The position numbers and the translations under genes are program-made. A DNA stretch of 62,201 nucleotides, the filler included, from Basidiobolus ranarum (taxonomy: Eukaryota), in NCBI GenBank assembly GCA_040143965.1. It is 13 parts of 13 records of this genome, joined end to end, with 100 filler letters (N's around TTAATTAATTAA, not from the genome) between each part and the next. Parts side by side here need not be neighbours in the genome. Positions count along the whole stretch, not along the records: positions 4,807 to 9,512 come from JASJQH010008732.1; 12 more parts are not named here. The stretch is one strand, 5' to 3'. Below are positions 4,807 through 52,190 of the stretch, piece by piece. Below the pieces are notes generated by a model. The model did no database searches and had not been told where the DNA came from. It saw only the letters and a list, made by a program, of their open reading frames with translations. How positions within the stretch are numbered: the first letter of the stretch is position 1; each line of letters begins with the position of its first letter.

Positions 4807-4807
4807 T

Positions 4808-5152
4808 CCTTACAATAGACAAGACCCGTCTATGCGCCAATTTGGAAATGATCCTTTCAACAGACAAGACCCTTCTATGCGCCAATTTGGAAATGTTCCT
4901 TACACTAGACAAGACCCATCGGTACGCCAATATACAAATGCTCCTTTCAACAGACAAAACCCGTCCATGCGATTTGGAGGTGCTCCTTTCAACAGACAAG
5001 ACCCGTCCATGCGTCAATTTGGGAATGCTCCTTCCAACACACAAAACCCATCTATGCGCCAATATACAAATGCTCCTTACAACAGACAAAACCCATCCAT
5101 GATTCAATATCCAAATGCTTACTACAACAAACAAAATCCATCGATGGGCCAG
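4808..5152 (+). repeat. 45-bp coding minisatellite, ~8 units
   Basis: Recurrent CCTT(A/T)CAACAGACAA(G/A)ACCC-TC-ATGCG-CAAT every 45 nt (one unit of 42 nt). Confidence 0.92.
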
Positions 5153-5215
5153 TTTTCAAGTAGTCCATCCGAATTCCAATATTTAACCGCCCCTGGGAGG
5201 GTTATGAACCTTTGA
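4808..5215 (+). CDS. 3' end of a protein made of 15-aa tandem repeats (P-F/Y-N-R-Q-D/N-P-S-M-R-Q-F/Y-G/T-N-A), function unknown
   Basis: Frame is open from the contig edge to TGA at 5213-5215. About 8 repeat units differ partly at synonymous positions (e.g. CCG/CCT/CCA, TCT/TCC/TCG) and by one in-frame 3-bp deletion, consistent with coding constraint. Confidence 0.7.
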   Translation, partial: PYNRQDPSMRQFGNDPFNRQDPSMRQFGNVPYTRQDPSVRQYTNAPFNRQNPSMRFGGAPFNRQDPSMRQFGNAPSNTQNPSMRQYTNAPYNRQNPSMIQYPNAYYNKQNPSMGQFSSSPSEFQYLTAPGRVMNL

Positions 5216-6146: not shown

Positions 6147-7109
6147 TTAGAGCGGGACTGGATGACTGAGGGTAATGGCACAGTGACCCTCCAGGTCCGT
6201 CCACCAACATGCGAGCTTAAAACCGGCAGCTGCCAATTCCGAACGCAGTCCTTCCTCGCGGAACCTGTACGAGAACCCACAATGCAGCAGCTCCTTATCC
6301 TCGAACATAACTGTCTGCTCCGGTTGAGAGAGCGTGACGTTGAATGAACGACGGGCCCGTAAACAGCTCTCAACGCGCTCTTCTTGTGAGTTCCAGACTG
6401 TGACATGATCAAAGGAATCTGGATCAAAGTTGGCGCCCAGCTCGTAGTTGAGAACAGTCAAGCTATTCTTTAAGAATGAAGCCATAGTGCCCTCGTCGTC
6501 ATTGTACGCAGATACCATTGTCTGCTCATTTCTCAACAGGTTCGTTCCAAGAAGCAGGGCGTCACCAGGATTCAGCTGGGAGCGAATTGAAGACAGCAAG
6601 AGGTGACGTTGCGTTGGTGTATGATTTCCGAAAGTGCCACCAAGAATTGTCACCAAAGTGGGTCCATTCTGGGGGTTCAGGTTTAGAGATGTATTGAAAT
6701 CTCCGACTACGGACTGGATGACGAGATCCGGATAGTCTCTACATAATGTAGAAGCGCCTTTCTTCAGAGCGCTATGACTAAGATCCACCGCGGTGTAATG
6801 AGAGAGAGAGCCTTTTTCGTGAAGTACGCCTATTAAATGGTAAGTTTTTTCTGAAGAGGCAGAGCCGAGATCGACGAGGATACGGGCAGGAATGGATGCC
6901 GCTATATCGACCGCGTGACGTCTGAGAATCTCATGTTCGACATGGAGGATATAGTACCCGGGCATGTTGACGAGGGCATCAAAGAGTTCGCTGCCTCGGG
7001 AGTCATAAATGTATCTTCCGGGAAACCTCTTCGGAGTCTTAGCCAGTCCTGAGCGCATATCTTCCCGCTTCAAGGCGTCTAAGTTGACGGATTTATTAGC
7101 AATAGGCAT
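6147..7109 (-). CDS. egtD: EgtD-like SAM-dependent aromatic amino acid N-alpha-methyltransferase (Methyltransf_33 family), intronless, actinobacterial type
   Basis: 320-aa ORF with YDSRGSELFD..YY, LVDLGSASSEKT (SAM-binding loop), LGGTFGN, LNPGDALLLGT, AYNDDEG, WNSQEERVE and ELAAAGF..WWTD. It is colinear with mycobacterial EgtD as recalled and lacks the sulfoxide-synthase domain of fungal Egt1. Confidence 0.88.
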   Translation of the reverse strand: MPIANKSVNLDALKREDMRSGLAKTPKRFPGRYIYDSRGSELFDALVNMPGYYILHVEHEILRRHAVDIAASIPARILVDLGSASSEKTYHLIGVLHEKGSLSHYTAVDLSHSALKKGASTLCRDYPDLVIQSVVGDFNTSLNLNPQNGPTLVTILGGTFGNHTPTQRHLLLSSIRSQLNPGDALLLGTNLLRNEQTMVSAYNDDEGTMASFLKNSLTVLNYELGANFDPDSFDHVTVWNSQEERVESCLRARRSFNVTLSQPEQTVMFEDKELLHCGFSYRFREEGLRSELAAAGFKLACWWTDLEGHCAITLSHPVPL

Positions 7110-7757
7110 CGTGGAGACTAATTAGTAGGGATAAAGCTGGATGCAAATAAGGGGCAAGTTGCATTATGCCATTAACTCTTTCTCTATTTAAACCTATTTG
7201 CGAGAAAATGGTGTAACTACTTCCTAATATTGTAAAAAATAGGGGGAAAACGTAAGTGGGTCTAAACACGTCATTCGTTAAACGTGTTCCTTCAAGCTCG
7301 GGGTGGTCGGGTCTTTCTTGCACTGATGGAAAACGAGCTTATACCAGATTGACCCGTATCATATTTAGACTACTCGATCTAATATTCAGCTCAACCTGGC
7401 CAATAAATATCGTTCAACTAGACACACAGTAATATACATGAGAGTATACTGAGGTTGAATGAGAATACACTTCACGCATGCTACATCTGGCAATTTCTTT
7501 GCATGCAGCAATGCATGAATGAATTAGGAATGCTAACAAGCTCATTGTCACAGTTTGAAAAAACAAGCAAGTTGCAATGTTGAGTCGGAGATTTCAACTT
7601 CATGTATTCAATAGTGTGAGGAAAGATATTTCAACCTCCAAGTGGTACTCTATATTTCATTTTGAACACTCATTGCAAGGTTTCTCTTTCAAAATATAGC
7701 ATTATTTCTAATCAGAACTCATATTGCTAGATTTTTATTAGCAGCTTATCTATTTTC

Positions 7758-8105
7758 TGTTAAAGTATTTGGGAGCCTGTTGGAAGTGGTTTAGAGAATT
7801 AGAGGAACTGGTGGTTTTCACTTATTGATTTGTTGAGTAGAAAGTTGACATTTATAGTTCTGTCAAGATATAAGTAAGCCAACATGTAGAATTTGTCAAG
7901 GAAGGTCCCAGGAACATGTGTGCAAGGTTTGGGGCTTCTAGCACAAGCTTGAAAAATCTATATATCTGAGAACTTCTAAGTTGGTAAAGTTATTCCACAT
8001 AAATTCCAATTGAGAATAATGGATAATTTCTGAGTGAATTATAAGATAACCAAGTACTAAGCTATATATGACTATATAGGTGTTTAGGTAATGCTAATTT
8101 CAACA
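7758..8105 (-). repeat. LTR family A (~348 bp)
   Basis: TG...CA termini. Related copies at 26173-26501 and 32512-32858. Confidence 0.88.
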
Positions 8106-9512
8106 CTCTCCCACAACTAAATAGTCATATAAACTAATCCTAATAAAGGTCTAAATTTCTCAAATTTCTATCTAGCTAATGATTTGGTTAACATATCAGC
8201 AATCATGTCTTCTGTAGAGCAACAAGTTAAGTCTATAAACTTATTTTCTGTAGTCTCTCTAATGAAGTGATGCTTAATTTCTATGTGTTTGCTTCTATTA
8301 TGAAACATGGGATTTTTAGCTGATTTGATACAACTTTGATTATCTTGAAATATTGTAGTTGGTGAATTTTGAGAATAACCTAAATCTGTTAAGAGTTTTC
8401 TTAACCATATTGCTTCTTTTGTTGCTTCACAGGCAGCCTTGAATTCAGCTTCTGTTGTTGAAAGTGCTACAGTAGATTGTTTCTTTGAATTCCAATAAAT
8501 AGCTCCATTACAGCAAAGAAATAAGTATCCTGTCATAGATCTCCTGTCTTCAATATCTCTTACCTAATTTGTATCTGAATATCCCATCAGCTCAAAGTTT
8601 GATCCAGAAAATGTGTATTTTAAGCACAGATTCTCAGTACCTTTCAAATATCTGAAAATCCACTCAACTGCTATGATTTGATCAGATCCATAATTTTGAA
8701 GATATGGCACCTAACTCTCACACAATATGCAAAATCTGGCCATTTTCCAACCATGATATATATCAAACTACTAAACATTGATTGATGAGGAAAATTCTGG
8801 CTTTCATTTGAATGCAAAATCATCTTATTTGAGCCATTTTTGGTCAAGTTAAGATTTGTCTCCATTGGGGTAGATACTGGTTTACATTCTTCCATTTGAA
8901 ACTTCTTTAGTATATTTAGGATATACTTAGACTGGTTTAAAGTTATTGTTTTGGTAGTTCTATCTATCCTAATTTGGATTCCAAAATAGTATATCAGTTC
9001 ACCAGCTGGATTTGGTTTTCTCCAAAGTCTTCAAGTCATTGGTTGCTGTAATAAGGTCATCTACATACAAGGCTAATAAAACTGGGTTTGTCTTATCTGG
9101 CCTGAAGTAGATACTATAGTCAGCATTACTCTTTTGGAATTTGAGTGTTTCCAAAAAAGCATCTATCTTGCTATTCCAAGCTCTTGGAGATTGTTTTAAG
9201 CCATAGAGTGTTTTCCAGAGTCTGCAAACTTTTGTAGGGTTTTCTGGGTCCACAAAACCATCTGGCTAGTCCATATAGATCTCCTCAGCAAGCTCACAGT
9301 TCAAAAAGGTAGTTTTAACATCCATTTGATGTATAACAAGCTGATATTTAGCTGAAATTGCTAAAATCAATCTAATTCAATTAAACTTTGCTACAGGAGC
9401 AAAAGTTTCTGTTTAACCTATTCCTTGTGTTTAGGAATAGCCTTAGGCTACTAGTCTAGCCTTGACCTTTCTATATTGCTATCAGAGTTGTATTAAACCT
9501 TGAACACCCATT
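7758..9512 (-). mobile_element. Decayed Ty1/copia LTR retrotransposon, 3' half (RT, RNase H, PPT, 3' LTR family A)
   Basis: Interrupted frames encode LYGLKQSPRAWN, LALYVDDLI, KPVSTPME, SKKQSTVALSTTEAEF and DMIADMLTK. A polypurine tract (GTGGGAGAG on minus) abuts the LTR. Confidence 0.95.
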
Positions 9513-22182: not shown

Positions 22183-23151
22183 TCAGTCTTTTTTACCTGA
22201 CTTCTCCTTTTCAGCATTATTGGCAGGTGACATACCAGCTGCCATTCGAACTGGGGTGACAAGAGAAGACCAATCTTGTTCGGAGCATCCATTAGCTTTG
22301 GCAGCAAGTAAATGCTGGAAAGCTAAATCTGCTAATGGAAGTGGGCATTGAGATTCCTGTGCTAATCTACGCATATGACCTACATCCTTAAGGCCTAGAT
22401 CAACGGTGAAACCGACATCATCAACAAAAGAATCCTTCACCATTTTGGATGAGTATCCATTGTATGAACCAAATGGAAACATCAAGTCTATGAATTCCTT
22501 GATCTTTTCACGCGAGACTCCTGATTTCTCTCCGAATGTCATTCCTTCAGCCAACGCCTCAATCACGCTGACAATAAAGAAATTTCCCACAAGTTTGGTT
22601 TTGGCCGCGGCGGCAGGGTCCTGACCGAGGTCTAGAATGGCTCTTCCAATCACTGGCACCAAGTGAGGACGTATCTTTTCAAGGACCTTTTGAGACCCTG
22701 CAGGTACTAATATTAATTGTGCGGCTTGTGCAGCAGAGGTAGCTCCAAACACAGGCATAGATAAAAATTCGCATTTTTGGTTGGGTTTGGATATTTCTTC
22801 GCATCGTTTCGCGAGTTCTTTTACGGTATCGGGATACAGTGTACTAGTTTCAATTATCATTGAATCCTTGTTTTTGCTCTTTACAGCTTGAAATATTTCC
22901 TCATAAACTTTGAGAACAACACTGTCGTTAGCCAAGGAGACGAAAACTATATCACTTTGGCTTACAAGCTCAGCCACTGAGTCTATTTGTCTTCCACCAG
23001 CTTCTACCACTGGCTTGCATTTATCCAGAGTACGGTTCCAGACTAATACCGAAGGTAACTGTTCCTTAGCAAAATGCTTCTGGAGATTAAGTGCCATCGC
23101 CTGACCCATATTCCCCATACCGATAATTCCATATGTACTTTCCCCAGTCAT
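22183..23151 (-). CDS. NAD(P)-dependent beta-hydroxyacid dehydrogenase (3-hydroxyisobutyrate/6-phosphogluconate dehydrogenase-like), intronless
   Basis: GIIGMGNMGQAMALNL, WNRTLDK, IIETSTLYP, PVFGA, KLVGNF (catalytic Lys) and GFTVDLGLKD. Confidence 0.9.
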   Translation of the reverse strand: MTGESTYGIIGMGNMGQAMALNLQKHFAKEQLPSVLVWNRTLDKCKPVVEAGGRQIDSVAELVSQSDIVFVSLANDSVVLKVYEEIFQAVKSKNKDSMIIETSTLYPDTVKELAKRCEEISKPNQKCEFLSMPVFGATSAAQAAQLILVPAGSQKVLEKIRPHLVPVIGRAILDLGQDPAAAAKTKLVGNFFIVSVIEALAEGMTFGEKSGVSREKIKEFIDLMFPFGSYNGYSSKMVKDSFVDDVGFTVDLGLKDVGHMRRLAQESQCPLPLADLAFQHLLAAKANGCSEQDWSSLVTPVRMAAGMSPANNAEKEKSGKKD

Positions 23152-24011: not shown

Positions 24012-24283
24012 TTACAACCATAGCATAAACCTGGTTTCCTTCTTTTGTAACCTTTGTACTTGCCAAAGCTACATTTTCCAGCTCCAAAAAGAGCCACTTC
24101 CTCAGATTCTTTTTCCAAATTCTTACTTCTGAGATGTTGATCCATTAGCCTTGCTACCACAAACTCCAAAGACAACTTGTCAGATCTTGCTTCTAAAGCT
24201 GTGACCAAGTTTGAATATTGTTCTGGTAGACTACTTAGAAGACAGTTCTCTGATGATTTTGCAATATAGAAGGGTGGATCCAA
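24012..24283 (-). mobile_element. Ty1/copia gag fragment (separate element)
   Basis: LLSSLPEQYSNLVTALE..LSLEFVVARL..CYGC (UBN2-type gag and start of zinc knuckle). It lies downstream of the protease of the neighbouring element, so it is not part of the same ORF. Confidence 0.75.
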
Positions 24284-24517
24284 TCCAGCTCAAATCAATT
24301 TTATTTTTGTTAGGGGATCAAGTGTCACCCTTTCCAGTACATATGCAGCCAGTTTGTTTCTTCCAGCTACCATGATATCCAGATTTTCTATTTCTTTATA
24401 GGCATGCATTATGTTTGTTTTGTTACACATGTGACCACTTGCACCAGAATCCAGAATCCATACATCAGCAGAGTTATTTCCTGATTGAGAGATTGTCATA
24501 AGTACATAGTGGTCTTT

Positions 24518-24832
24518 TGTGGATATTTAATCTTTATTCACCATCTTAGTTAACTTTAGAAATGATAAATATATCAGAAACCACAAGCAAGCTATTGATA
24601 GCCCCTATATTCCAAACAGGAATATATATGTATCTATATAATAAGTATGTCTAAATACCCCCACTTATCTATTATATCTTCTTACACCAACACCTGAATA
24701 TCTCAAACAATTGATTTACTTCTCTACTATATAAGTCACCATACTCTCTTTAGAATAAAGTAACCAAAGACACTACCATCAGTTGCCTCTAACATACAAA
24801 GTCTACCCCCATTATATCAAGATTCTCTAACA
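24518..24832 (+). repeat. Solo LTR family B, inverted relative to host element
   Basis: Reverse-complement homologue of 25628-25941. Flanked by TCTTT/TCATT, a 4/5 match to a target-site duplication. Confidence 0.8.
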
Positions 24833-25618
24833 TCATTTCCACTTTTAATTTTGTTACATACTTCCTTTTTCTTTGAAACCCATTCCTTCTTTGATCTGCA
24901 ATATTATGCTATACCACATTTGTAACATTTCACAGTGCTCTTTTCTAGTTGGCTATTTTGAGAATAAAATGATTTTGTAGTTGTTGCTTCATCTGCAGGC
25001 TGACTTTTGTCTCTCCTTTTAAATTCTTCTTGATGTAGATGAGTGATCAGATGGTGCTGAGTAAGCTTATCCCCAATTGATTCCACAGTAAGCTCTAGGG
25101 CTGAATATGATTCAGGGAGACCATTACCTATGGTAAAAATTACATCCATTTCAGGTACCTCATAATTCATTGATTCTGGCTGTTGGGCAAGTTTCCTGAC
25201 ACCATTCACATATAGCATAATGTCAGAATTTTTAGACATATGAGAGTTATAGAATTTTCTTTGTAGCATCATCAAGTAAGCAAGTTCTTTTTGCTCATGA
25301 TGTTCCACTGGGATTTCCCATGCATTTTTGGCAGAGTTAGCATCTCTGACTAGCATAAGTTGTAGTGATTCTAGTCTTAGACATATTTCTGTAAATGCCA
25401 ATCTGTCATTTTCTTTAGTTGCCCTGGCTTCTTTGTTTCAGTGTAAGAATCTTTACTCTCTTCTTCAGATGTTTCTTCTTCAACTGGTTGAACTACTTCC
25501 CAGATATGTTTCTCTTCAAGCATAAGTTGCATCTTCAATTTCTATTCATGGGAATCTTCCCTATTGAATATTGGAATATTAGTAATCTCCTTTTGGGAAA
25601 AAGATTCTAAATCACTTG

Positions 25619-25627
25619 CTGCTACCA
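25619..25627 (-). promoter_or_regulatory. Primer binding site (tRNA-iMet type)
   Basis: TGGTAGCAG immediately after the 5' LTR on the minus strand. Confidence 0.65.
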
Positions 25628-26065
25628 TGTTGGAGGATCTTGACATAATGTGGGTAGACTTTGTATATTAGAGGCAACTGATGAAAGTGCTTAGCTACTT
25701 AATTCTTAAGAGAATGTGGTGACTTATATAGTAGAGAAGTAAATCAATTGCTTGAGTTATTCAATAGTTTGACTAGCAAGATATAGCAGATAAGTGGGGA
25801 TAATAAGACATACTTATTATATAAATACATAGATATTGCTAATTATAATATAGGCACTATAGATATGTTGCTTTCTGTTTCTGACATAGGTATCATAACC
25901 AAAGTTAACTAAGATGCTGAATAAAGATTAATTATCCAACAATTTCCCAAGCATTCTTGTAGAGTCAGCATTTCTGACTAGCATAAGTTGTTGTGATACC
26001 AGTCTCACATATATTTCCCTAAATGCCAATCAATCTTTTTCTTTGAATATTGCCCTGGTTTCTTT

Positions 26066-26562
26066 ACATGTTTGCTGTGACCTTCCTTATCACATTTTAC
26101 ATGTTCTTTTGCTTATATCTTGACAAAACTTTCAATGTCTACTTTCAACTCAATAAATGCATAAGTAGAACCAGTTAAGGTATTTGGGAGCCTGTTGGAA
26201 GTGGTTTGGAAAGTTAGGGGAATTGGTGGTCTTCACTTATTAATTTATTGACTAGAAAGTTGACATTTATAGTTTTGTCAAGATGTAAGCAAACTAATGT
26301 GTAGAATGTGTTAAGGAAGGTTCCAGAAACATGTGTGCAAAGTTTGGGGCTTCTAGCACAGGTTTGAAAAAGCTATATATCTGAGAACTTCTGAGTAAAT
26401 TCCAATTGAGAATAATGGATAATATCTTTGTTCAACATAAGACAACTAAGTACTAAGCTATATATGACTATATAAGTGTTTAGGCAATGCTAATTTCAAC
26501 AGAGCCACCAACTTCTCTAGCTCTGCAAACCACTTCCAATAGGCTCCCAAAATACAGTAACA
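26066..26562. repeat. Solo LTR family A (26173-26501) nested in an oppositely oriented family A-like LTR
   Basis: 26066-26172 and 26502-26562 join into a continuous reverse-complement LTR-A sequence. The insert is flanked by GAACC/GAGCC. Confidence 0.8.
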
Positions 26563-27719
26563 ATCAAAACTTACATTAAGTAACTAGGGAGTACTGATGT
26601 AGCTTTATAAGAGGAAGTTATTGTTGTTGCACTTCTAAGTACTTTTCCTGAGAAGTAAGCTAATTTGAATGTTGCTTGCTATAAATGTATCTCAAGCCCA
26701 TGACAACAGAAGAGTTGGGTTACTTTTGTTTGGATATTAAAATGAGGAATAACATAATGCGAAATTTAGTTCCATAATATGGAAATCAAAATATCGAATA
26801 GCACTCTTTTATTGGCAAGAATCAGTTAAAGTTATATATATATAGGGAGAACTTGTTGGTATGCTATTCATTCACCAACTAATCACTGGCAAATAATTGG
26901 CCCTGGATGAATTTCAATTTAAAAATAGGGTCTCGATTCATCACCTGAATGGTAGAGATACAACTAATACGAATTAATTATTAGCTAATTTATTCTATTG
27001 GGTTTGCTGCAGGAAATAATAAATGTTTAGATGTTTGTGATTGAATCAGGCTACTCAAACATAACAGGCAATAACGAAGTCGAACTCTTGTATGTCATAA
27101 ATTAGCATTGCTCCAAAGCTTTGGTGTTAATACTCTTAGAACTGGAAATTATAATATACAGCCGACCCACCCTTATTCAACATGAAATTCTCCTACTTTT
27201 TGGAAGAGATTCTAGGTGGTACTGGCGATTTTGACCAAATAAACAAGTTCTGCAACTTCAATTTGTATAGGCCCTACGCCTAGTCCAAGCAATCTACGGA
27301 TATGGTGCGTGCGATCTCGATATAGTTATCTGGTGTGTCCCCCCACTCAATAAATCAGCCTCTGCATTGCAGCTGATCCAACACTGTACTTGTTGCCATC
27401 TTAAATATAAGAAAGTGCCGCGATAAATAGTAGTCACATATGTACCATGATCCAATGGTTTAATCAGCCCTAAAAATAGAATCTCCTACTTCTCCCTTTA
27501 AACAGTTATTTTACCACAGAACCCAAACAGTACACTATTTATAAATCAATCCTGACTTTCGTCTTCATTGTCTCTGTATACATCACCTCTTTGGACGAAA
27601 TTATTAAAAGTCAAAGGTTTTCCACGGTCGGCCCAAAATCATTGTTGATATAGTTCGCTGAGATTACAAATCTTCTATATCGTTTTTTCATAGCGACTGG
27701 CATCTTCAACACACAGGTT

Positions 27720-31611: not shown

Positions 31612-32511
31612 TATGAAATTCCTATTAAAAGGCTACAAGCCACCTCCATACCTTTTGTAGTCATTTTGTAATTTATTTAATACGTCAGCCATATGGGGAG
31701 TCACCCCGAAATCTCCAAGATAGCAGTTGGTATCTCATAATTATCAATGAATTAGTTCACTCTAATTATTGATAGATTTTATCCAATATTGATAGAAATG
31801 ATTGTTTTCTAACTCCAATTTGCATTAATATTAGGTCTGTAAGCTCATTTTTCTCTGCAAAAAGAGTAACTCATCTCACTTATAGTTAACAGAAATTTAT
31901 GCTTCATTGGATTCGCTCTATGAACAAGTTGAGGGGGACGGAGAACACATCATGATGCAAAATTCATTTTATTTGGCTATTGCAATTACAATCATGGAAT
32001 TATGTCTCTCACTGTTGCCCAGAACTGATTCGCTTTTTTGCAATTATATTTACAAATTGTATGCTTCAACTTGGAACCGACTTGTCAAGCTCAATCCTCT
32101 CATATCTATTTGCATCTATTGACCTAGCTCTGAAAGTATGGTGCTGTCTGATCTCCATTTCAATGCACTATCAAAGATTGCGATCTCTAATTGACTGATT
32201 CTGCTTTGAGCTCACCAATTTTTTGCTTGGGATGATGATGATGGCTTCATCCTTATCTTTAATTTCCTTACAGGTCTTTTTATATTGGCTTCATTAGTAT
32301 CCATCATATTTGTCAGCCACACTATTGGCTAACAATGTTTGTATTAGCAAGCTAGCTCAATATTAAATTTGTTTAACAATGTCTGGTAATGGCCAAGTTA
32401 TTGTTGAAGTTAGCAGAGCCTAAGCATCTACATGGTCATGTATATTGAAATTAGCATTGCCTAAGCACCTAGATAGTCATATATAGCTTAGTATCTAGCT
32501 ATCCTATATTT

Positions 32512-33370
32512 TGTTAAAGTATTTGGGAGCCTGTTGGAAGTAGTTTGGTGAATTAGAGAAATTGGTGGATTTCACTTGTTGATTTATTAAGGAGAGAGTT
32601 GACATTTATAGCTTTGTCAGGATGTAAACAAACTAAGATGTATAAAGTGTTAAGAAAGGTCCCAGGAACATGTGTGCAAAGTTTGGGGCTTCTAGCACAG
32701 GTTTTGAAAATCTACATATCTGAGAACTTATATGTAAGTAAAAATATTCCAAGTAAATCTCAATTGAGAATAATGGATAATATCTTGGTGAAATATTAGC
32801 AACTAAGCACTAAGCTATAAATCACTAAGTAGGTGCTTAGACAATGCTAATATCAACACTCTCTCTCAACTATATAGTCATACTAACTTATCCAAAGGAG
32901 GGTCTAAATTTCTCCAATTTCTGTCTAGCTAATGGCTTGATTAATATATCAGCAATCATGTCTTCTGTAGAACAATAACTTGAGTCAATAAACTTATTTC
33001 CTATAGTGTCTGCAATGAAGTCAAGTCTAATATCTATAAGTTTGTTTCTATTAAGAAGCATGGCATTTTTAGCTAATTTGATACAACTTTAATCATCTTA
33101 AAACATTGTAGTTGGCAAATTTCAAGAATAATCTAAATCTGTTAAGAGTTCTCTTCACCATATTGCTTCTTTTGTTGCTTCACTGGCAGCTATGTATTCT
33201 GCCTCTGTTTTTAAAGTGCTATAGTAGGTTATTTCTTTGAAATCCAAGAAATAGCTCCATTATAGCAAAGAAATTAGGATCCTGTTGTAGATCTCCTGTC
33301 TTCAATATCTCTTCCCCAATTTGCATCTGAATAACCCATCAGATCAAAGTTTGATCCACAATATGTGTAT
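32512..33370 (-). mobile_element. Decayed Ty1/copia 3' end (RNase H, PPT, 3' LTR family A 32512-32858)
   Basis: GYSDANWGRDIEDRRSTTG and DMIADILIKPLAR. LTR homologous to 7758-8105. Inverted LTR-A starts lie at 32402-32511. Confidence 0.9.
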
Positions 33371-33600
33371 TCTGTTGAAGTTATTGTCGTTATCATATTT
33401 GTTATCTCTATCCTTATACACCTAACTATTTCATATATCACATATAAGTTAGTTAACATTACTTAGTCAAATATCACTTAGCTGAAAATCGGAACATATA
33501 NNNNNNNNNNNNNNNNNNNNNNNNNNNNNNNNNNNNNNNNNNNNTTAATTAATTAANNNNNNNNNNNNNNNNNNNNNNNNNNNNNNNNNNNNNNNNNNNN

Positions 33601-47965: not shown

Positions 47966-48704
47966 TCTGCTTTGTAGAGAATACTATATCTTCATGCCTT
48001 CAGAAGTCTGCAAGAAAATATACAATAAGACTCATGAGGATAGAAAGCGTGAATTGAGAAATAGGAATTTCGATTTGGGTACACTAGTCTCCATGGTAAT
48101 AGGGCCATAACCAGTAATAGTGCAAAGCAACTAACCATAGCACTTTCCACTTCAGAGGCAGAGTATATGGCTGCCTTTGCTGCTACATAAAAAGCTATGT
48201 GATTACGGAAGTTATATACAGACTTAGGATACATGCAAAAATGTACTATTAATATATTTTAAGATGATCAAAGTTGTATTTCATTAGCTTTGAACCCAAC
48301 ATTTCTTGCTAGAACAAAATATATAGATAGTTGGCATCAAATTGTTAGAGAAGTAATAGAGAATGATATAATTGAGCTTTCTATTGCCCATCTGAAGAAA
48401 TGGTTGCTGATATCTTAACTAAACCTTCAGCTAAAGCACAATCTGAATCATTAAGATATAAAACAGATTTAATAGAAATACAAAATAATTAGTTGAGTGG
48501 GAATGTTGAAATCAGATAAATAGCTACACATTATTTAGTAGCTAGTTTATTCATATTCTAATTATTTAGCCCTCAATTCTGCCATTCAAAAACATGTGTT
48601 TATGGCTCTAATTGATGGAAATACAAATTTGATTGCTTTTACCAATTTTCACTATTTTCTCAAAACTTCTCCAATTCCCCTCAAATTTTCACCCATAATT
48701 AACA
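47966..48704 (+). mobile_element. Decayed Ty1/copia 3' end (RNase H, PPT, LTR family C 48504-48704)
   Basis: IALSTSEAEYMAA and EEMVADILTKP. PPT GAGTGGGAA precedes TGTTG...AACA. Confidence 0.88.
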
Positions 48705-48769
48705 GGCATATTAGTTATGCTCTAAGTATGTTCAATAGTCCTATTTTATAGTAAACTATACATAGGACA

Positions 48770-49540
48770 TCTTCAATTCAATAAAGGTTAAATGTCTAAT
48801 TCACTAATCCAAATCTTGTCCAATACACTTTCAAATCTCCTAAACACTTGCATCAGTTTGGCTGCTCAGGAATAACTAATAATCTTCTGCCATTCCCACA
48901 CTACCAAATTTGTGTTGGGACTCTTTATAGCCTCCTGTACTGCTTTTGGCTCATCTGAAAAGCCTAAATTGGCACCAGGCTCCTTTGGTGAATGTTGGAG
49001 TAGTAGTACAAAGGGGACCTCATCCAAATAGACCTTATCAGATAGGAAATTTGCACTGCAGCTTCTGTTATCAAGTTTAAAAGTGAAATCACCTCAAGCT
49101 TGGTTGAGGAGACTACAGATAAGATACTTTTAATGATTTTCTTGCTGCTCAGGAGTTGGTGAGAGAAAGTAGAATTTTCAATGATTTTGGTGGTTTTTCT
49201 TGATCCTGCATTTTTTTGATTGAAAATTTTTCTTCTTCAACAAAGGCAACTCCCCATGGCTTAATTAGCCACTTATTCTCCACAACATATATCCTCTATT
49301 GTATTGTTTATTTGCAATAATCTATAAGATGTCATTTATGGTTCTGTTAGTTTAACTTTGACTTTTTTATATTTGGAATTGTTATATATGTAGGACTTCC
49401 AAAAACTCCGTGATCAGCCACATCAGGTTGACTTTGCTATAAAGCTTGATAGGTATCATGTCTAACAGGGACCTGTAAGAATATCTTTTCTAATATATAC
49501 TGCATTTGCAATAACAGTGTTTAGGCAAGTTGGAAGTGTT
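48770..49540 (-). mobile_element. Ty1/copia fragment (integrase C-terminus to start of RT)
   Basis: Degenerate VFGSPTY, EPKAVQEAI and K-VGCKCLGD-like motifs on the minus strand. Confidence 0.6.
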
Positions 49541-49659
49541 TTGGACAATATTTGGAGTTGTTTATTGGACTCTTGAGTTTTATTGAAATGAATATGCCCT
49601 GTTTTTCACTTACTATAAAATATAAGAATTTGTCATACTCAGATCATAACAAACAAGCC

Positions 49660-52190
49660 TATTAAGCATGGGTGAAAATTTTGGGCAATTTGGATTGGTA
49701 AAGTGAACTGATTCATATTTTGAGCAATTAGAGCAATAAATACACATTTTTGAATGGCAGAATCAAGTGCTAAATAATCAGAATAAGAATAAACTGACTC
49801 CTAAATAATGCGTGGCTATTTACCTAATTTCCACATTCTCATTCAACTGCTTATTTTGTATTTGCAATAAACCCAACTTGTGTCCTAATAATTCAAATTG
49901 TGCCTTAGCTAAAGGTTTGGTTAAGATGTCAGCAATTGTTTCTTCAGTAGGGCAATATGCAAGTTCAATTATAACATTCCCTATAGCTTCAACAATATGA
50001 TACCTAATTTCTATTTTTTTGTTCTAGCATCAAAGGTAGGACTTTTAGCTAATGAAAGACAACTTTGATTATGTTCATATACAGCAATAGCACACCATTT
50101 CATGCATCCTAAGTCTTTAAATAACTTCCTTAACCCCAAAGCTTCTTGTTTAGTAGCAGAGGCAGCCTTATTTGTTGCCACTGTAGTGGATAGTGGTATG
50201 GCTGGTTGCTTCTTACTATTCCAAAGAATGTCTCCATTAGCATTGAGAAAAGTATACCCAGTTATTGTTCTTCTATCATCAAGGTTTTTGCTCCAGTCTG
50301 CATCAGAAGTGCCAGAGTATTCCAGAACTTGGTCCACAGTTCTTCTCAAATACCCAATTATTTATCTCACTGTACTTTTGTGATTGGATCTTGGATTTTT
50401 GAAATATTGGCTGACAGTTCCAGTGGCCACCACAATGTATGGACATGTTTCAACCATTTTATATATTTAACTACCCATCATAGTTTGATAAGCAATCTCC
50501 ATGCTATGATTTGGTCACTTGGGGCTAAATCAGATGAAATGTTAAATAATTTCACATAGGGATCTATTGGAGTTGATACAGGCTTACTATTCTCCATGTT
50601 GGAGTGTCTTAGGATGTCTAAGAAGTATCTAGACTGATTCAGCATTTTTTTTGGATTGGTAATATTGCTCTTGATTTGGATTCCATACAAATAACATAAA
50701 TCACCCATGTCAGTAAGAAATTGGTTTGATAAGCTGCTTTGATCTGATTAAGTGCTTCTAGAATGTTTGTGGCTATGAGAAAGTCTTCCACACATATTGC
50801 CAACATAACAGTCCCATATCTGGTTTTTTGTTGTAAATTCTGAGTTCTGCTGTGCATTTTTGGAACTCCAGTGACTTCAAGTATGTATCTATCTTGTTGT
50901 GCCATGCCCTGGGTGTTTTCTTGAGTCAATATGGCAATTTTTGTAGTTTGCAGAGAGTATCTGGGTGTTTTGAGTTAACAAATTCATCTGGTTGGCCTCT
51001 CAAGATTGCTTCTTCTAGATTTCCATTAAGAAAGGCTGCTTTGACATTCATTTGATGTAAATAACTGTTATGGATGGCAGAGAGTGCCAGGATTGATCTA
51101 ATGGAGCAAAACCTAGCTACCAGAGCAATAGTTTTATCAAAATCAAATCGTGGAGTCTGGGAATAACTTTGCATGACCAATCTTGCTTTGTACCTTTCTA
51201 TGGTTCCATCAGCTTGGTTTTCAACTTTATATACCTATTTGCAGCCTGTGGGCTTTGTTCCTGATGGTCAAAGATGCAAACCCATATTTTATTGTTTTGA
51301 AGTGAAGAAATTTTGTCTTACAATGTTTTTTCCCACATTTTTGAGTTTGGACACTCCAGAGCTTGATCTAGAGTCTGCAAAAGCATAGACTTCATTTTTG
51401 AAACTGTTTAACCAGTGCCCTGGCTTAATCATCCTCCAGGTCCAAAATCTTTCTATAATGTAATTTGGGCTTGAATTTTGATTGAGTTGGGCTCAGATAC
51501 AGCTGGAATGTTGCCAGCCACCTCCTAGGCTTTGTACTAAATATCACATCTTGGTACTTGATTAGCTTCTGATATTTGGTATCAAACAGTCTGCAGGCCT
51601 TAGATCCATTACAGTAACAAAGAAATAAGCATTTTCTACATTTGAGTACCAGCTTAGGGTGCTTTTGAGCTGGAATTAGGCAAAATGCAGTGCAACCAAA
51701 GATCCTCAGATGATCCACATGTGGTTTTGCTCCATATTGGGCTTAAATTGGAGTAAAATTTTGTAGCAATCTTGTCATGCATCTGTGTTTGATCTAGACT
51801 TGGGGTTAGGAATCTTGTTGGGCATCTGTTTTTGATATAGACTGCAGTGGAGACAGATTCAGCCCAATATTGGTGATTTAACTTCTGATCATGTAACATT
51901 GATCTTGCCATCTCTACTATGGTCTTATTAGCACATTCTGCCACTCCATGTTGCTGTGTAGTGTAAGATACAGTAGTTTGTTACTTAAATCCAAGTTGAC
52001 ATCAAAAACTGGCATAGTTTTGAGATCAATATTCTCCACCATTATCACTTCTTATTACCCTTATTTTTTGTGCGGATTCTTTCTCCACCATTGCTATGTA
52101 TATATAAAAGTAGCTAAAACTCCAGATTGTGAAATAAGAAAGAATACCTAAGAATATCTTGTTTTGTCATCAATAAAGGTAATAAAGTAC
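49660..52190 (-). mobile_element. Decayed Ty1/copia element (integrase, RT, RNase H, 3' LTR family C 49660-49835)
   Basis: GVAECANKTIVEMARSML, YWAESVSTAVYIKNRCPT, HLRIFGC, RYKARLV, HQMNVKAAFLNGNLEE, SDADWS and WNSKKQ. The LTR is the inverted homologue of 48504-48704. Confidence 0.93.

Follow-up and report, generated by a model that had tools for sequence, protein, structure and literature searches.

The Methyltransf_33 family, of which fungi carry many genes, includes Egt1, EasF, TrpM and the aromatic amino-acid betaine synthases, and these provide precedents for substrates other than histidine. EgtD converts histidine to hercynine, and mutagenesis of the enzyme (E282A/M252V) reportedly switches it to tryptophan. 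According to a published account of EgtD (PMC8593015), Asn166 and Thr163 hold the alpha-amino group, and Tyr56, Tyr206 and Ser284 hold the carboxylate; in the M. tuberculosis enzyme, Thr213 holds the imidazole-binding water. Bacterial-like genes make up 2-5% of Basidiobolus genes, and Actinobacteria are their third commonest source (Tabima et al. 2020, PMC7466969); the passages of that text on Basidiobolus transfers make no mention of the Methyltransf_33 family. A literature search returned nothing on EgtD paralogues with altered E282/M252.

We analyzed a window of 62,201 nucleotides from Basidiobolus ranarum, which consists of 13 contigs of about 4.7 kb with N spacers between them. The contig at 4807-9512 carries a candidate methyltransferase gene whose substrate, judging from the encoded sequence, is probably an amino acid other than histidine. 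The features of this contig are as follows:

4807..5215, plus strand: 3' end of a neighboring host gene encoding the tail of a tandem-repeat (NRQDPSMRQFGN-like) protein; the ORF is open at the contig end
5216..6146, no strand: downstream intergenic region between convergent genes, AT-rich (GC 0.34), presumed to hold the 3' UTRs
6147..7109, minus strand: complete, intronless coding sequence of a putative Methyltransf_33 amino-acid N-methyltransferase (ORF, Pfam PF10017, PDB matches and trees)
7110..7749, no strand: upstream intergenic region, AT-rich (GC 0.37), presumed promoter
7750..9512, minus strand: degraded copia-type retrotransposon fragment with an LTR-like end, an RNase H region and RVT_2 (3.7e-22)

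The coding sequence begins with an ATG and encodes 320 residues plus a stop in an intact reading frame. Both sides of the ORF were bounded by stops, and its start and stop aligned with those of the bacterial homologues; an in-frame stop lies four codons 5' of the ATG, so that no upstream exon is necessary. The repeat-protein gene at 4807..5215 is convergent with the methyltransferase gene, and its tail matched no Pfam family. Within the 320-residue protein, Methyltransf_33 was the sole Pfam family above cut-off (2.1e-87; 293.5 bits, cut-off 23), with residues 15-314 corresponding to positions 2-301 of the 304-position profile. The Egt1 architecture, in which Methyltransf_33 is fused to a DinB_2/FGE-sulfatase sulfoxide synthase, was not found in the ORF. 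A PDB search gave mycobacterial EgtD structures as the best matches (E 1e-66 to 1e-69), and the predicted structure (Atlas model) was confident, with a pTM of 0.86. Upon comparison with canonical EgtD from Mycobacterium and Streptomyces (PDB 4PIM, 4UY6 and 7SCF), the fold and length were found to be shared, with 40-48% identity. The first-pass annotation had described an intronless, stand-alone, non-Egt1 protein with an EgtD-type C-terminal motif, a four-residue offset to mycobacterial EgtD and no egtA, egtB, egtC or egtE neighbors, and this description was borne out in each respect. The C-terminus, ELAAAGFKLACWWTD, fits the motif, and the offset is constant across the pairs N162/N166, Y202/Y206, S248/M252, G278/E282 and S280/S284. 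The egtA/B/C context of canonical egtD is absent: relatives of egtA, egtB, egtC and egtE were not detected by tblastn (E<=1) anywhere in the 62-kb window, although the contig extends over just 4.7 kb and genes of one pathway do not have to lie together in a eukaryote.

The similarity to canonical EgtD covers the SAM site but does not extend to the residues involved in recognition of the histidine side chain. The codons concerned are the following:

6276..6278, minus strand: Gly278 codon (ccc on the plus strand, GGG), in the EgtD Glu282 column by column mapping
6366..6368, minus strand: Ser248 codon, in the EgtD Met252 column by column mapping
6483..6485, minus strand: Met209 codon, in the EgtD Thr213 column by column mapping
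6624..6626, minus strand: Asn162 codon, the equivalent of the alpha-amino-binding EgtD Asn166 by alignment, conserved

In the alignment, the equivalents of Asn166, Thr163, Tyr56, Tyr206 and Ser284 were all retained, and the SAM, alpha-amino and carboxylate residues were kept both in the fungal proteins and in a set of Streptomyces relatives that we term NG-type. Methylation of an amino-acid alpha-nitrogen is therefore the most likely reaction. By contrast, the histidine-recognition set of Glu282, Thr213 and Met252 is replaced by Gly, Met and Ser, respectively. The Glu282 column contains Glu in 275 of the 311 rows of the family alignment and Gly in 20, and Gly is shared by the two Basidiobolus homologues and all seven Streptomyces NG-type proteins. 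At the Met252 column (Met in 257/311 rows), the Basidiobolus homologues and the Streptomyces NG-type proteins have Asn, and at the Thr213 column (Thr in 291/311 rows), both Basidiobolus homologues have Leu. M252N/S, T281V/C and E282G are derived states common to the fungal and NG-type proteins, whereas T213M/L is restricted to the fungal proteins. These replacements suggest that the substrate is probably other than histidine, a reading that leans on homology to the mycobacterial structures and on the E282A/M252V precedent. Additionally, the near-invariant Gly88 of the SAM motif is Ala in the window protein, a state present in only one of the 311 rows. Canonical EgtD shows 95% or more conservation at 40 positions, of which the protein matches 30; six of the ten changes are conservative, and the other four fall within or next to the side-chain pocket. 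Together with G88A, the 30/40 count means that activity may be reduced or lost.

NG-type EgtD paralogues are a group defined in the present analysis by their clade, by Gly at 282 and by the lack of Met at 252, and the window protein shows all three characters. The bacterial representatives (for example, WP_366116984.1; S. netropsis, S. jumonjinensis and UNOC14_S4; loci L002, L003, L007, L022, L042 and L078) share E282G, T281V/C and M252N/S with it at 44-46% identity, but differ in keeping Thr213 and in having Phe at 167. The NCBI label of these Streptomyces proteins is L-histidine N(alpha)-methyltransferase. With the egtD equivalog model (NCBIfam TIGR03438, cut-off 290.9), canonical proteins scored 369-382 bits, NG-type Streptomyces proteins 293-312 bits, which is just over the cut-off, and the fungal proteins 262 bits, with the window protein at 262.3. 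Its score against the EasF model (NCBIfam TIGR03439) was 154.4 bits, under the cut-off of 205.55; the bacterial clade is closer to it than EasF.

When 1.84e9 representative proteins were searched exhaustively with HMMER, nothing exceeded 54% identity, and the two best matches were Basidiobolus proteins. The best 80 genome loci all belonged to Actinomycetota, and Basidiobolus was the sole fungal name among the 17 of 149 top representatives whose names were looked up. We built trees from sets in which named fungal Egt1, EasF and TrpM sequences were not represented. In the FastTree phylogeny of 311 rows, the fungal trio (the window protein, B. ranarum KAK9685403.1 and B. meristosporus ORX83412.1) had a support of 100, and the trio together with seven Streptomyces NG-type rows had a support of 99. 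In the IQ-TREE analysis of 71 hand-picked rows (LG+C20+F+G4 PMSF), the fungi (100/99) and the NG-type Streptomyces proteins (100/99) were joined as sisters at 100/100, and this joint clade was nested in a 37-row clade (98/98) in which all named rows were Actinomycetota. The joint clade persisted at 98 after 11 pocket columns were removed. The fungal rows were flagged for deviant amino-acid composition in the tree-row check, so that the support for their grouping could be inflated. Two further proteins, P0252 (916 aa) and P0157, were excluded from the IQ-TREE sets for their long branches. P0252 was the only protein recovered in a search for longer or fused relatives; its Methyltransf_33 domain is C-terminal, and the fungal Egt1 architecture is thus not matched. 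In raw identity, the window protein was no closer to the NG-type proteins (44-46%) than to canonical Streptomyces EgtD (45-48%), and the sister relation therefore rests on the tree, the derived residues and the synteny of KAK9685403.1. Descent of the gene from a bacterial source of the Streptomycetaceae type is well supported by these comparisons, and the actinobacterial origin proposed in the first-pass annotation was upheld by both the HMMER search and the nested position in the Methyltransf_33 phylogeny.

The genomic context of the NG-type genes points to the nature of the source. An LCM (PF04072/TIGR00027) gene was found directly upstream in six of six NG-type Streptomyces loci and in none of the 74 other loci, and a LuxR-type regulator was adjacent in three loci. 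In all six loci, the paralogue lies outside egtABCD, while these genomes carry their canonical egtD behind egtA, egtB and egtC; the ergothioneine egtD itself was probably not the source of the transfer. Of 401 Streptomyces genomes sampled (six first-look candidates scored per genome), a single one gave a match to the LCM partner at E<=1e-90, namely the search query's own source genome. In B. ranarum, the 498-residue KAK9685403.1 combines the C-terminal part of an LCM protein with Methyltransf_33, and its first 185 residues are 42-45% identical to the LCM proteins of the NG-type Streptomyces loci (E 1e-45 to 1e-50), although the N-terminal half of the LCM domain is missing from this deposited gene model, which may be an artefact. 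The fused LCM part suggests that a two-gene cassette was probably transferred, which contradicts the earlier proposal of a single-gene transfer. The window copy differs from both arrangements: there is no LCM gene directly upstream of it, and a search of the whole window, including 7110..7749, gave no match to an LCM gene or remnant with E below 1.

KAK9685403.1 and ORX83412.1 (a 216-residue fragment) are 47% and 54% identical to the window protein, respectively, and share with it Gly282, Leu/Met213 and Gln/His167. This divergence goes far beyond that of a dehydrogenase on the neighboring contig, which is 81% identical to its B. meristosporus counterpart (next best 38-42%), and the two homologues are thus probably paralogues rather than orthologues. 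The dehydrogenase match also marks the host as a Basidiobolus-like fungus. Their membership of a single fungal clade with the window protein argues for an old acquisition with later divergence and does not agree with the lone transferred gene of the first-pass annotation.

The surroundings of the gene are fungal in character. The ORF has a GC content of 0.50, a GC3 of 0.53 and a CpG o/e of 0.98, compared with 0.37 GC and a CpG o/e of 0.56 for the whole window, and its flanks have about 0.34-0.37 GC and contained no bacterial ORFs. The first-pass annotation had regarded the gene as visibly GC- and CpG-richer than its neighbors. It is richer than the window, but other coding exons reach 0.40-0.49 GC, and a kinase exon has a CpG o/e of 0.97; the contrast is therefore mainly one of coding against non-coding DNA and CpG-free transposons, which drive the low CpG of the window, and the true GC excess over the other exons is only about 1-10 points. 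GC and CpG were accordingly rejected as signs of foreign origin. Basidiobolus coding sequences in general average about 0.49 GC and 36% are intronless (PMC7466969), so that GC and the absence of introns are weak signals here. The contig end truncates the copia fragment at 7750..9512, whose 1763 bp are devoid of CpG. As had been noted before, this element shares the contig with the ORF and its family recurs elsewhere: the LTR and 3' end (7750-8619) were found again on contig 7 (84.6% over 870 bp) and on contig 6 (83.9% over 347 bp), where an F-box ORF and a 2OG-Fe(II) oxygenase fragment were the only genes detected on the two contigs. Within the assembled sequence, the copia element ties the methyltransferase gene to the fungal genome. 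Nesting in a bacterial clade and fungal flanks, two of the signs that together with even read coverage characterize horizontally acquired bacterial genes in Basidiobolus, were both seen, and the gene resembles the bacterial-origin genes described by Tabima et al. (2020, PMC7466969) in being intronless, ameliorated, flanked by fungal sequence and of actinobacterial affinity.

Several other explanations were weighed against this history. Bacterial contamination or a chimeric contig might be suspected from a contig of only 4.7 kb; it is extremely improbable, as the ORF has 50% GC against 69-74% in the nearest bacterial genes, the flanks of 34-37% GC lack bacterial ORFs, the contig also carries a copia element of a host family, and related genes occur in both the B. 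ranarum and B. meristosporus assemblies. A vertically inherited fungal Methyltransf_33 gene, akin to Egt1, EasF or TrpM, would fit the abundance of this family in fungi, and our trees held no named Egt1 or EasF. Nevertheless, the protein scored 154 bits with the EasF model (against 205.55) and 262 with the egtD model, Basidiobolus was the only fungal name among the 17 representatives looked up, the clade falls within Actinomycetota (98/98), and the LCM synteny is that of Streptomyces; we consider vertical descent very improbable.

The function of the protein leaves more room for alternatives. The first-pass annotation had assigned it to EgtD and ergothioneine synthesis, and a true EgtD, acquired as a single actinobacterial gene, converting histidine to hercynine and feeding fungal ergothioneine synthesis, would account for the mycobacterial EgtD structures as best PDB matches, the retained alpha-amino and carboxylate residues, the 45-48% identity to canonical Streptomyces EgtD and the NCBI label of the NG-type proteins. 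This assignment did not hold up well: Glu282, Met252 and Thr213 are all substituted and the equivalog score of 262 is below 290.9, which together make an ergothioneine role doubtful. The sister paralogue, moreover, sits outside egtABCD behind an LCM gene in genomes with a separate canonical egtD, and an egtB- or Egt1-type partner is absent from the window, though this covers only 62 kb. We therefore judge a true EgtD to be unlikely. A decaying relic of an old transfer, intact-looking in frame but without a present enzymatic role, is about equally unlikely. The relic would explain G88A in the SAM-binding glycine motif, the alteration of 10 of 40 highly conserved columns and the loss of the LCM partner; however, the frame is open over all 320 codons, with ends aligned to those of the bacterial homologues, six of the ten changes are conservative and four are in or beside the pocket, and the Atlas model is confident. 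The ORF also stayed free of stops through an amelioration from about 70% to 50% GC, which argues for selection.

The reading that we prefer, and regard as likely when taken as a whole, is that this is a nuclear Basidiobolus gene whose source was a rare Streptomyces-type cassette of LCM and an egtD paralogue, and that it now encodes an N-methyltransferase acting on a substrate other than histidine. The tree and the synteny suggest that the LCM/TIGR00027 and egtD-paralogue cassette entered an ancestor of the Basidiobolus species sampled, that the transferred gene shifted in GC from about 70% to the host coding level of about 50%, and that the family then diversified into several copies, LCM-fused in B. 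ranarum and stand-alone in the window. Most likely, the window enzyme methylates the alpha-nitrogen of an amino acid one to three times, with SAM as the methyl donor. This substrate is probably not histidine but an amino acid whose side chain is larger or more hydrophobic, and the product would be an N-methylated amino acid or betaine rather than hercynine. With such a product, the gene would probably stand outside ergothioneine synthesis.

More tentatively, the whole Basidiobolus family derived from this cassette, with its B. ranarum fusion and the remodeled pocket of the window copy, might make an undescribed N-methylated amino-acid derivative, a joint reading that we consider conceivable without favoring it. 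The derivative could also be methyl-esterified by the carboxyl-type (LCM) methyltransferase, two bacterial genes would have become one fused gene in B. ranarum, from operon to fusion, and the pocket of the window copy would have been altered further (T213M, M252S and L167H) for yet another substrate. If so, the name L-histidine N(alpha)-methyltransferase would be wrong for the Streptomyces paralogues.

Since genes of bacterial origin have already been described from Basidiobolus, the transfer itself is unsurprising. What is new is its source, a distinct and rare EgtD branch that current annotation lumps with histidine methyltransferases and that is paired with a second methyltransferase throughout the sampled Streptomyces loci (6/6). 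The pair has apparently been kept as a fusion in B. ranarum KAK9685403.1 and as a solitary, further-altered enzyme in the window. These results caution that an EgtD-like match alone is poor evidence of ergothioneine synthesis. The family may offer a clean example of a bacterial operon accommodated by a eukaryote, as well as a lead to a methylated amino-acid metabolite common to Streptomyces and a gut-associated fungus.

The methyltransferase gene is situated on the second contig of the window, which is composed of 13 contigs of ~4.7 kb with N spacers and does not represent one genome stretch. The features considered here are the following:

6147-7109, minus strand: methyltransferase ORF, 320 codons, ATG start, second contig (4807-9512)
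4807-5215, plus strand: tail of a repeat-protein gene, left of and convergent with the methyltransferase gene
7750-9512: degraded copia element, right of the methyltransferase gene, RVT_2 at 3.7e-22
22183-23151, minus strand: 3-hydroxyisobutyrate/6-phosphogluconate dehydrogenase-like gene, intronless, 322 aa

An in-frame stop lies four codons before the ATG and the N-terminus of the encoded protein (the query) lines up with the start of its bacterial homologues; the gene is therefore complete and intronless. The Pfam family Methyltransf_33 spans residues 15-314 (2.1e-87), so that the whole protein is assigned, and its solved-structure relatives were mycobacterial EgtD only (E 1e-66 to 1e-69). 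As the first-pass annotation had noted, the query ends in ELAAAGFKLACWWTD and follows the mycobacterial EgtD numbering at an offset of four residues, which was constant in our alignment.

A word-indexed search of 5.8e9 proteins returned 81 matches, the top named ones being Streptomyces EgtD with 46-48% identity. When 1.84e9 cluster representatives were searched exhaustively with HMMER, 7955 relatives at E<=0.001 were found, with a maximum identity of 54%, and the top two matches were B. ranarum KAK9685403.1 (498 aa, 48%) and B. meristosporus ORX83412.1 (a 216-aa fragment, 54%), which also bore the only fungal names among the 17 of 149 non-self representatives looked up. One genome was scanned for each prokaryotic species, with patterns that came from aligning the fungal proteins with the bacterial proteins nearest to them and were thus biased to that type. 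This confirmed 235 relatives, and the best 80, which were retained, all came from Actinomycetota, mostly Streptomyces.

Positions in M. tuberculosis EgtD numbering were mapped via protein P0091, which within its first 321 residues shows Y39, F47, Y56, T163, N166, Y206, T213, M252, E282 and S284. The Met252/Glu282 pair of mycobacterial EgtD was found in 245 of 311 aligned family members and Gly at column 282 in 20. Gly282, Val/Cys281 and Asn/Ser252 were common to the query, its two Basidiobolus homologues and seven proteins from Streptomyces (the loci L002, L003, L007, L022, L042 and L078 and the cluster P0083), which we refer to as the NG type. On the FastTree phylogeny of the Methyltransf_33 rows, about nine changes were needed for Gly at the Glu282 column, and the loss of Glu282 seems to have arisen repeatedly within the family.

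In the FastTree phylogeny of 311 rows, the fungal trio received a support of 100 and its grouping with the NG-type Streptomyces proteins a support of 99. A careful IQ-TREE analysis (LG+C20+F+G4 PMSF) of 71 rows gave 100/99 for the fungal trio, 100/99 for the NG-type Streptomyces proteins and 100/100 for the joint clade, which was nested in a clade of 37 rows (98/98) in which every named row was from Actinomycetota. The hand-picked set of 71 rows contained every one of the ten clade members, the rows next to them in the FastTree phylogeny, the canonical copies of their genomes and a selection of other rows, with the long branches P0252 and P0157 excluded; the trees were midpoint-rooted, contained no named fungal Egt1, EasF or TrpM sequences, and had their fungal rows flagged for deviant composition. 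Convergence in the pocket does not lie behind the grouping, because the joint clade remained at 98 in a quick IQ-TREE run of the 71 rows with 11 pocket columns removed (fungal trio 99, NG-type Streptomyces 100).

The query retains the glycine-rich SAM motif except for G88A, as well as D113, D141 and F142; Thr163 and Asn166, which hold the alpha-amino group; and Tyr56, Tyr206 and Ser284, which hold the carboxylate. The roles of these residues in EgtD are described in PMC8593015. Their retention supports a predicted activity in which a free amino acid is methylated at its alpha-nitrogen with SAM as the donor. The imidazole side of the pocket is replaced:

Residues on the imidazole side of EgtD
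Glu282 (faces the imidazole): Gly in the query and in the nine other clade members
Met252 (faces the imidazole): Ser in the query; Asn in the other nine clade members
Thr213 (holds the imidazole-bound water): Met in the query; Leu in the Basidiobolus proteins, Thr in the NG-type Streptomyces proteins

The query also differs from EgtD at positions 58, 159, 167 and 253. Against the NCBIfam egtD equivalog (cut-off 290.9 bits), canonical proteins scored 369-382 bits, NG-type Streptomyces proteins 293-312 and the fungal proteins 262. The EgtD function proposed in the first-pass annotation is thus not supported, given the imidazole-facing replacements and the score. Vit et al. in 2015 reportedly converted EgtD into a tryptophan methyltransferase with the E282A/M252V substitutions. 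A review likewise mentions that EgtD structures revealed specificity determinants 'including for L-tryptophan'. Judging from the pocket residues, the substrate of the query is probably not histidine but an amino acid whose side chain is likely to be larger or more hydrophobic.

At all six NG-type Streptomyces loci, a gene for an LCM-family SAM-dependent methyltransferase (PF04072, NCBIfam TIGR00027) lies directly upstream on the same strand, and these LCM proteins share 71-87% identity; no LCM gene was found within the fetched flanks of the 74 other loci. A large LuxR-type regulator adjoins the NG-type gene at three loci (L007, L022 and L078). Three genomes contain both the NG type and a canonical egtD. 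In the two whose canonical copy was inspected (L005 and L040), as in the further genome of L008, this copy sits behind egtA (GCS2), egtB and egtC (GATase); at L005 and L040, egtB is DinB_2 plus FGE-sulfatase. Since the canonical copy of the same genomes occupies the egt cluster, the NG type represents a paralogue that is not part of the ergothioneine operon. Its Streptomyces members carry the annotation L-histidine N(alpha)-methyltransferase despite lacking Glu282 and Met252 and lying outside egtABCD, and this label is probably an over-annotation. The cassette of LCM and EgtD paralogue is rare; among 401 sampled Streptomyces genomes, one had an LCM partner at E<=1e-90, and this was the source genome of the LCM query itself.

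The B. ranarum protein KAK9685403.1 (P0082 in the alignment) is modelled as a single 498-aa protein, in which residues 4-85 match the LCM profile in its C-terminal part (5.5e-19) and residues 190-488 match Methyltransf_33. Its first 185 residues showed 42-45% identity to the LCM proteins of the NG-type loci (E 1e-45 to 1e-50); the alignment reaches the end of the Streptomyces proteins, and the domain order is the operon order. This LCM synteny does not depend on the methyltransferase tree. Because KAK9685403.1 keeps an LCM part in operon order, the LCM/EgtD-paralogue pair would have moved together from a bacterium to the fungus and then fused in the lineage of this homologue. The first half of the LCM domain is missing from this model; the fusion of the operon genes may be genuine, or the gene model may have been truncated or merged. 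In the window, a tblastn search found no LCM remnant (best E-value >1). The query shares 47-54% identity with the two other Basidiobolus proteins, which pair together in the tree. Compared with the 81% between the dehydrogenase of the host and that of B. meristosporus, these values make it more likely that the query, KAK9685403.1 and ORX83412.1 are old paralogues rather than orthologues; one acquisition before the split of the sampled Basidiobolus species, followed by duplication, would then account for the trio.

The host is evidently a Basidiobolus-like fungus, because the dehydrogenase, on another contig, showed 81% identity to a B. meristosporus protein, whereas its next relatives, from Mortierellaceae, reached 38-42% (Mortierellaceae and green algae overall, 36-42%). 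The DNA around the methyltransferase gene has 34-37% GC and contains no bacterial ORFs. The repeat-protein tail on its left, truncated by the contig end, consists of ~10 tandem copies of a 12-residue unit (NRQDPSMRQFGN-like) and matched no Pfam family. The LTR and 3' end of the copia element recur on contig 7 (84.6% over 870 bp) and contig 6 (83.9% over 347 bp). These AT-rich flanks, the recurring copia element and the related genes in two other Basidiobolus assemblies make bacterial contamination a very unlikely source of the ORF.

Composition is not a mark of foreignness. The ORF has a GC content of 0.50 and a CpG o/e of 0.98, compared with 0.37 and 0.56 for the whole window, but other coding exons in the window range from 0.40 to 0.49 GC, one with a CpG o/e of 0.97, and the essentially CpG-free copia copies lower the window average. 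Ordinary Basidiobolus genes have a mean coding GC of 0.4865, and introns are absent from 36% of Basidiobolus fungal genes (Tabima et al. 2020, PMC7466969). The contrast is therefore mostly one of coding versus non-coding DNA, and neither GC content nor the intronless state carries the weight that had been placed on it. The nearest bacterial genes have 0.69-0.74 GC, far from the value of the ORF, which implies thorough amelioration and an old transfer. Taken with the Basidiobolus homologues and the LCM part of KAK9685403.1, this does not support reading it as a lone, possibly recent single-gene event.

The copia-type elements contained 0 CpG in 1763 bp (7750-9512), 0 in 2589 bp (24012-26600), 0 in 927 bp (32445-33371) and 6 in 3301 bp (48000-51300), with an excess of TpG and CpA and a sharp CpG boundary at 7750; the CpG o/e of genes and intergenic DNA in the window was 0.64-0.98. 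This pattern suggests repeat-targeted cytosine methylation and deamination, or a RIP-like process, in the host fungus.

The literature covered contained no description of the NG-type paralogue group, its pairing with LCM genes or its counterparts in fungi; the supplementary gene lists of Tabima et al. may already include the B. meristosporus copy as a transfer candidate. The central proposal of the first-pass annotation, that a fungus has domesticated an EgtD-family gene of actinobacterial type that stands alone, holds. Such a gene is less surprising for this host than had been assumed, as 2-5% of Basidiobolus genes are bacterial-like, with Actinobacteria the third most frequent apparent source (Tabima et al. 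2020, PMC7466969), and genes are already known to have passed from bacteria into Basidiobolus.
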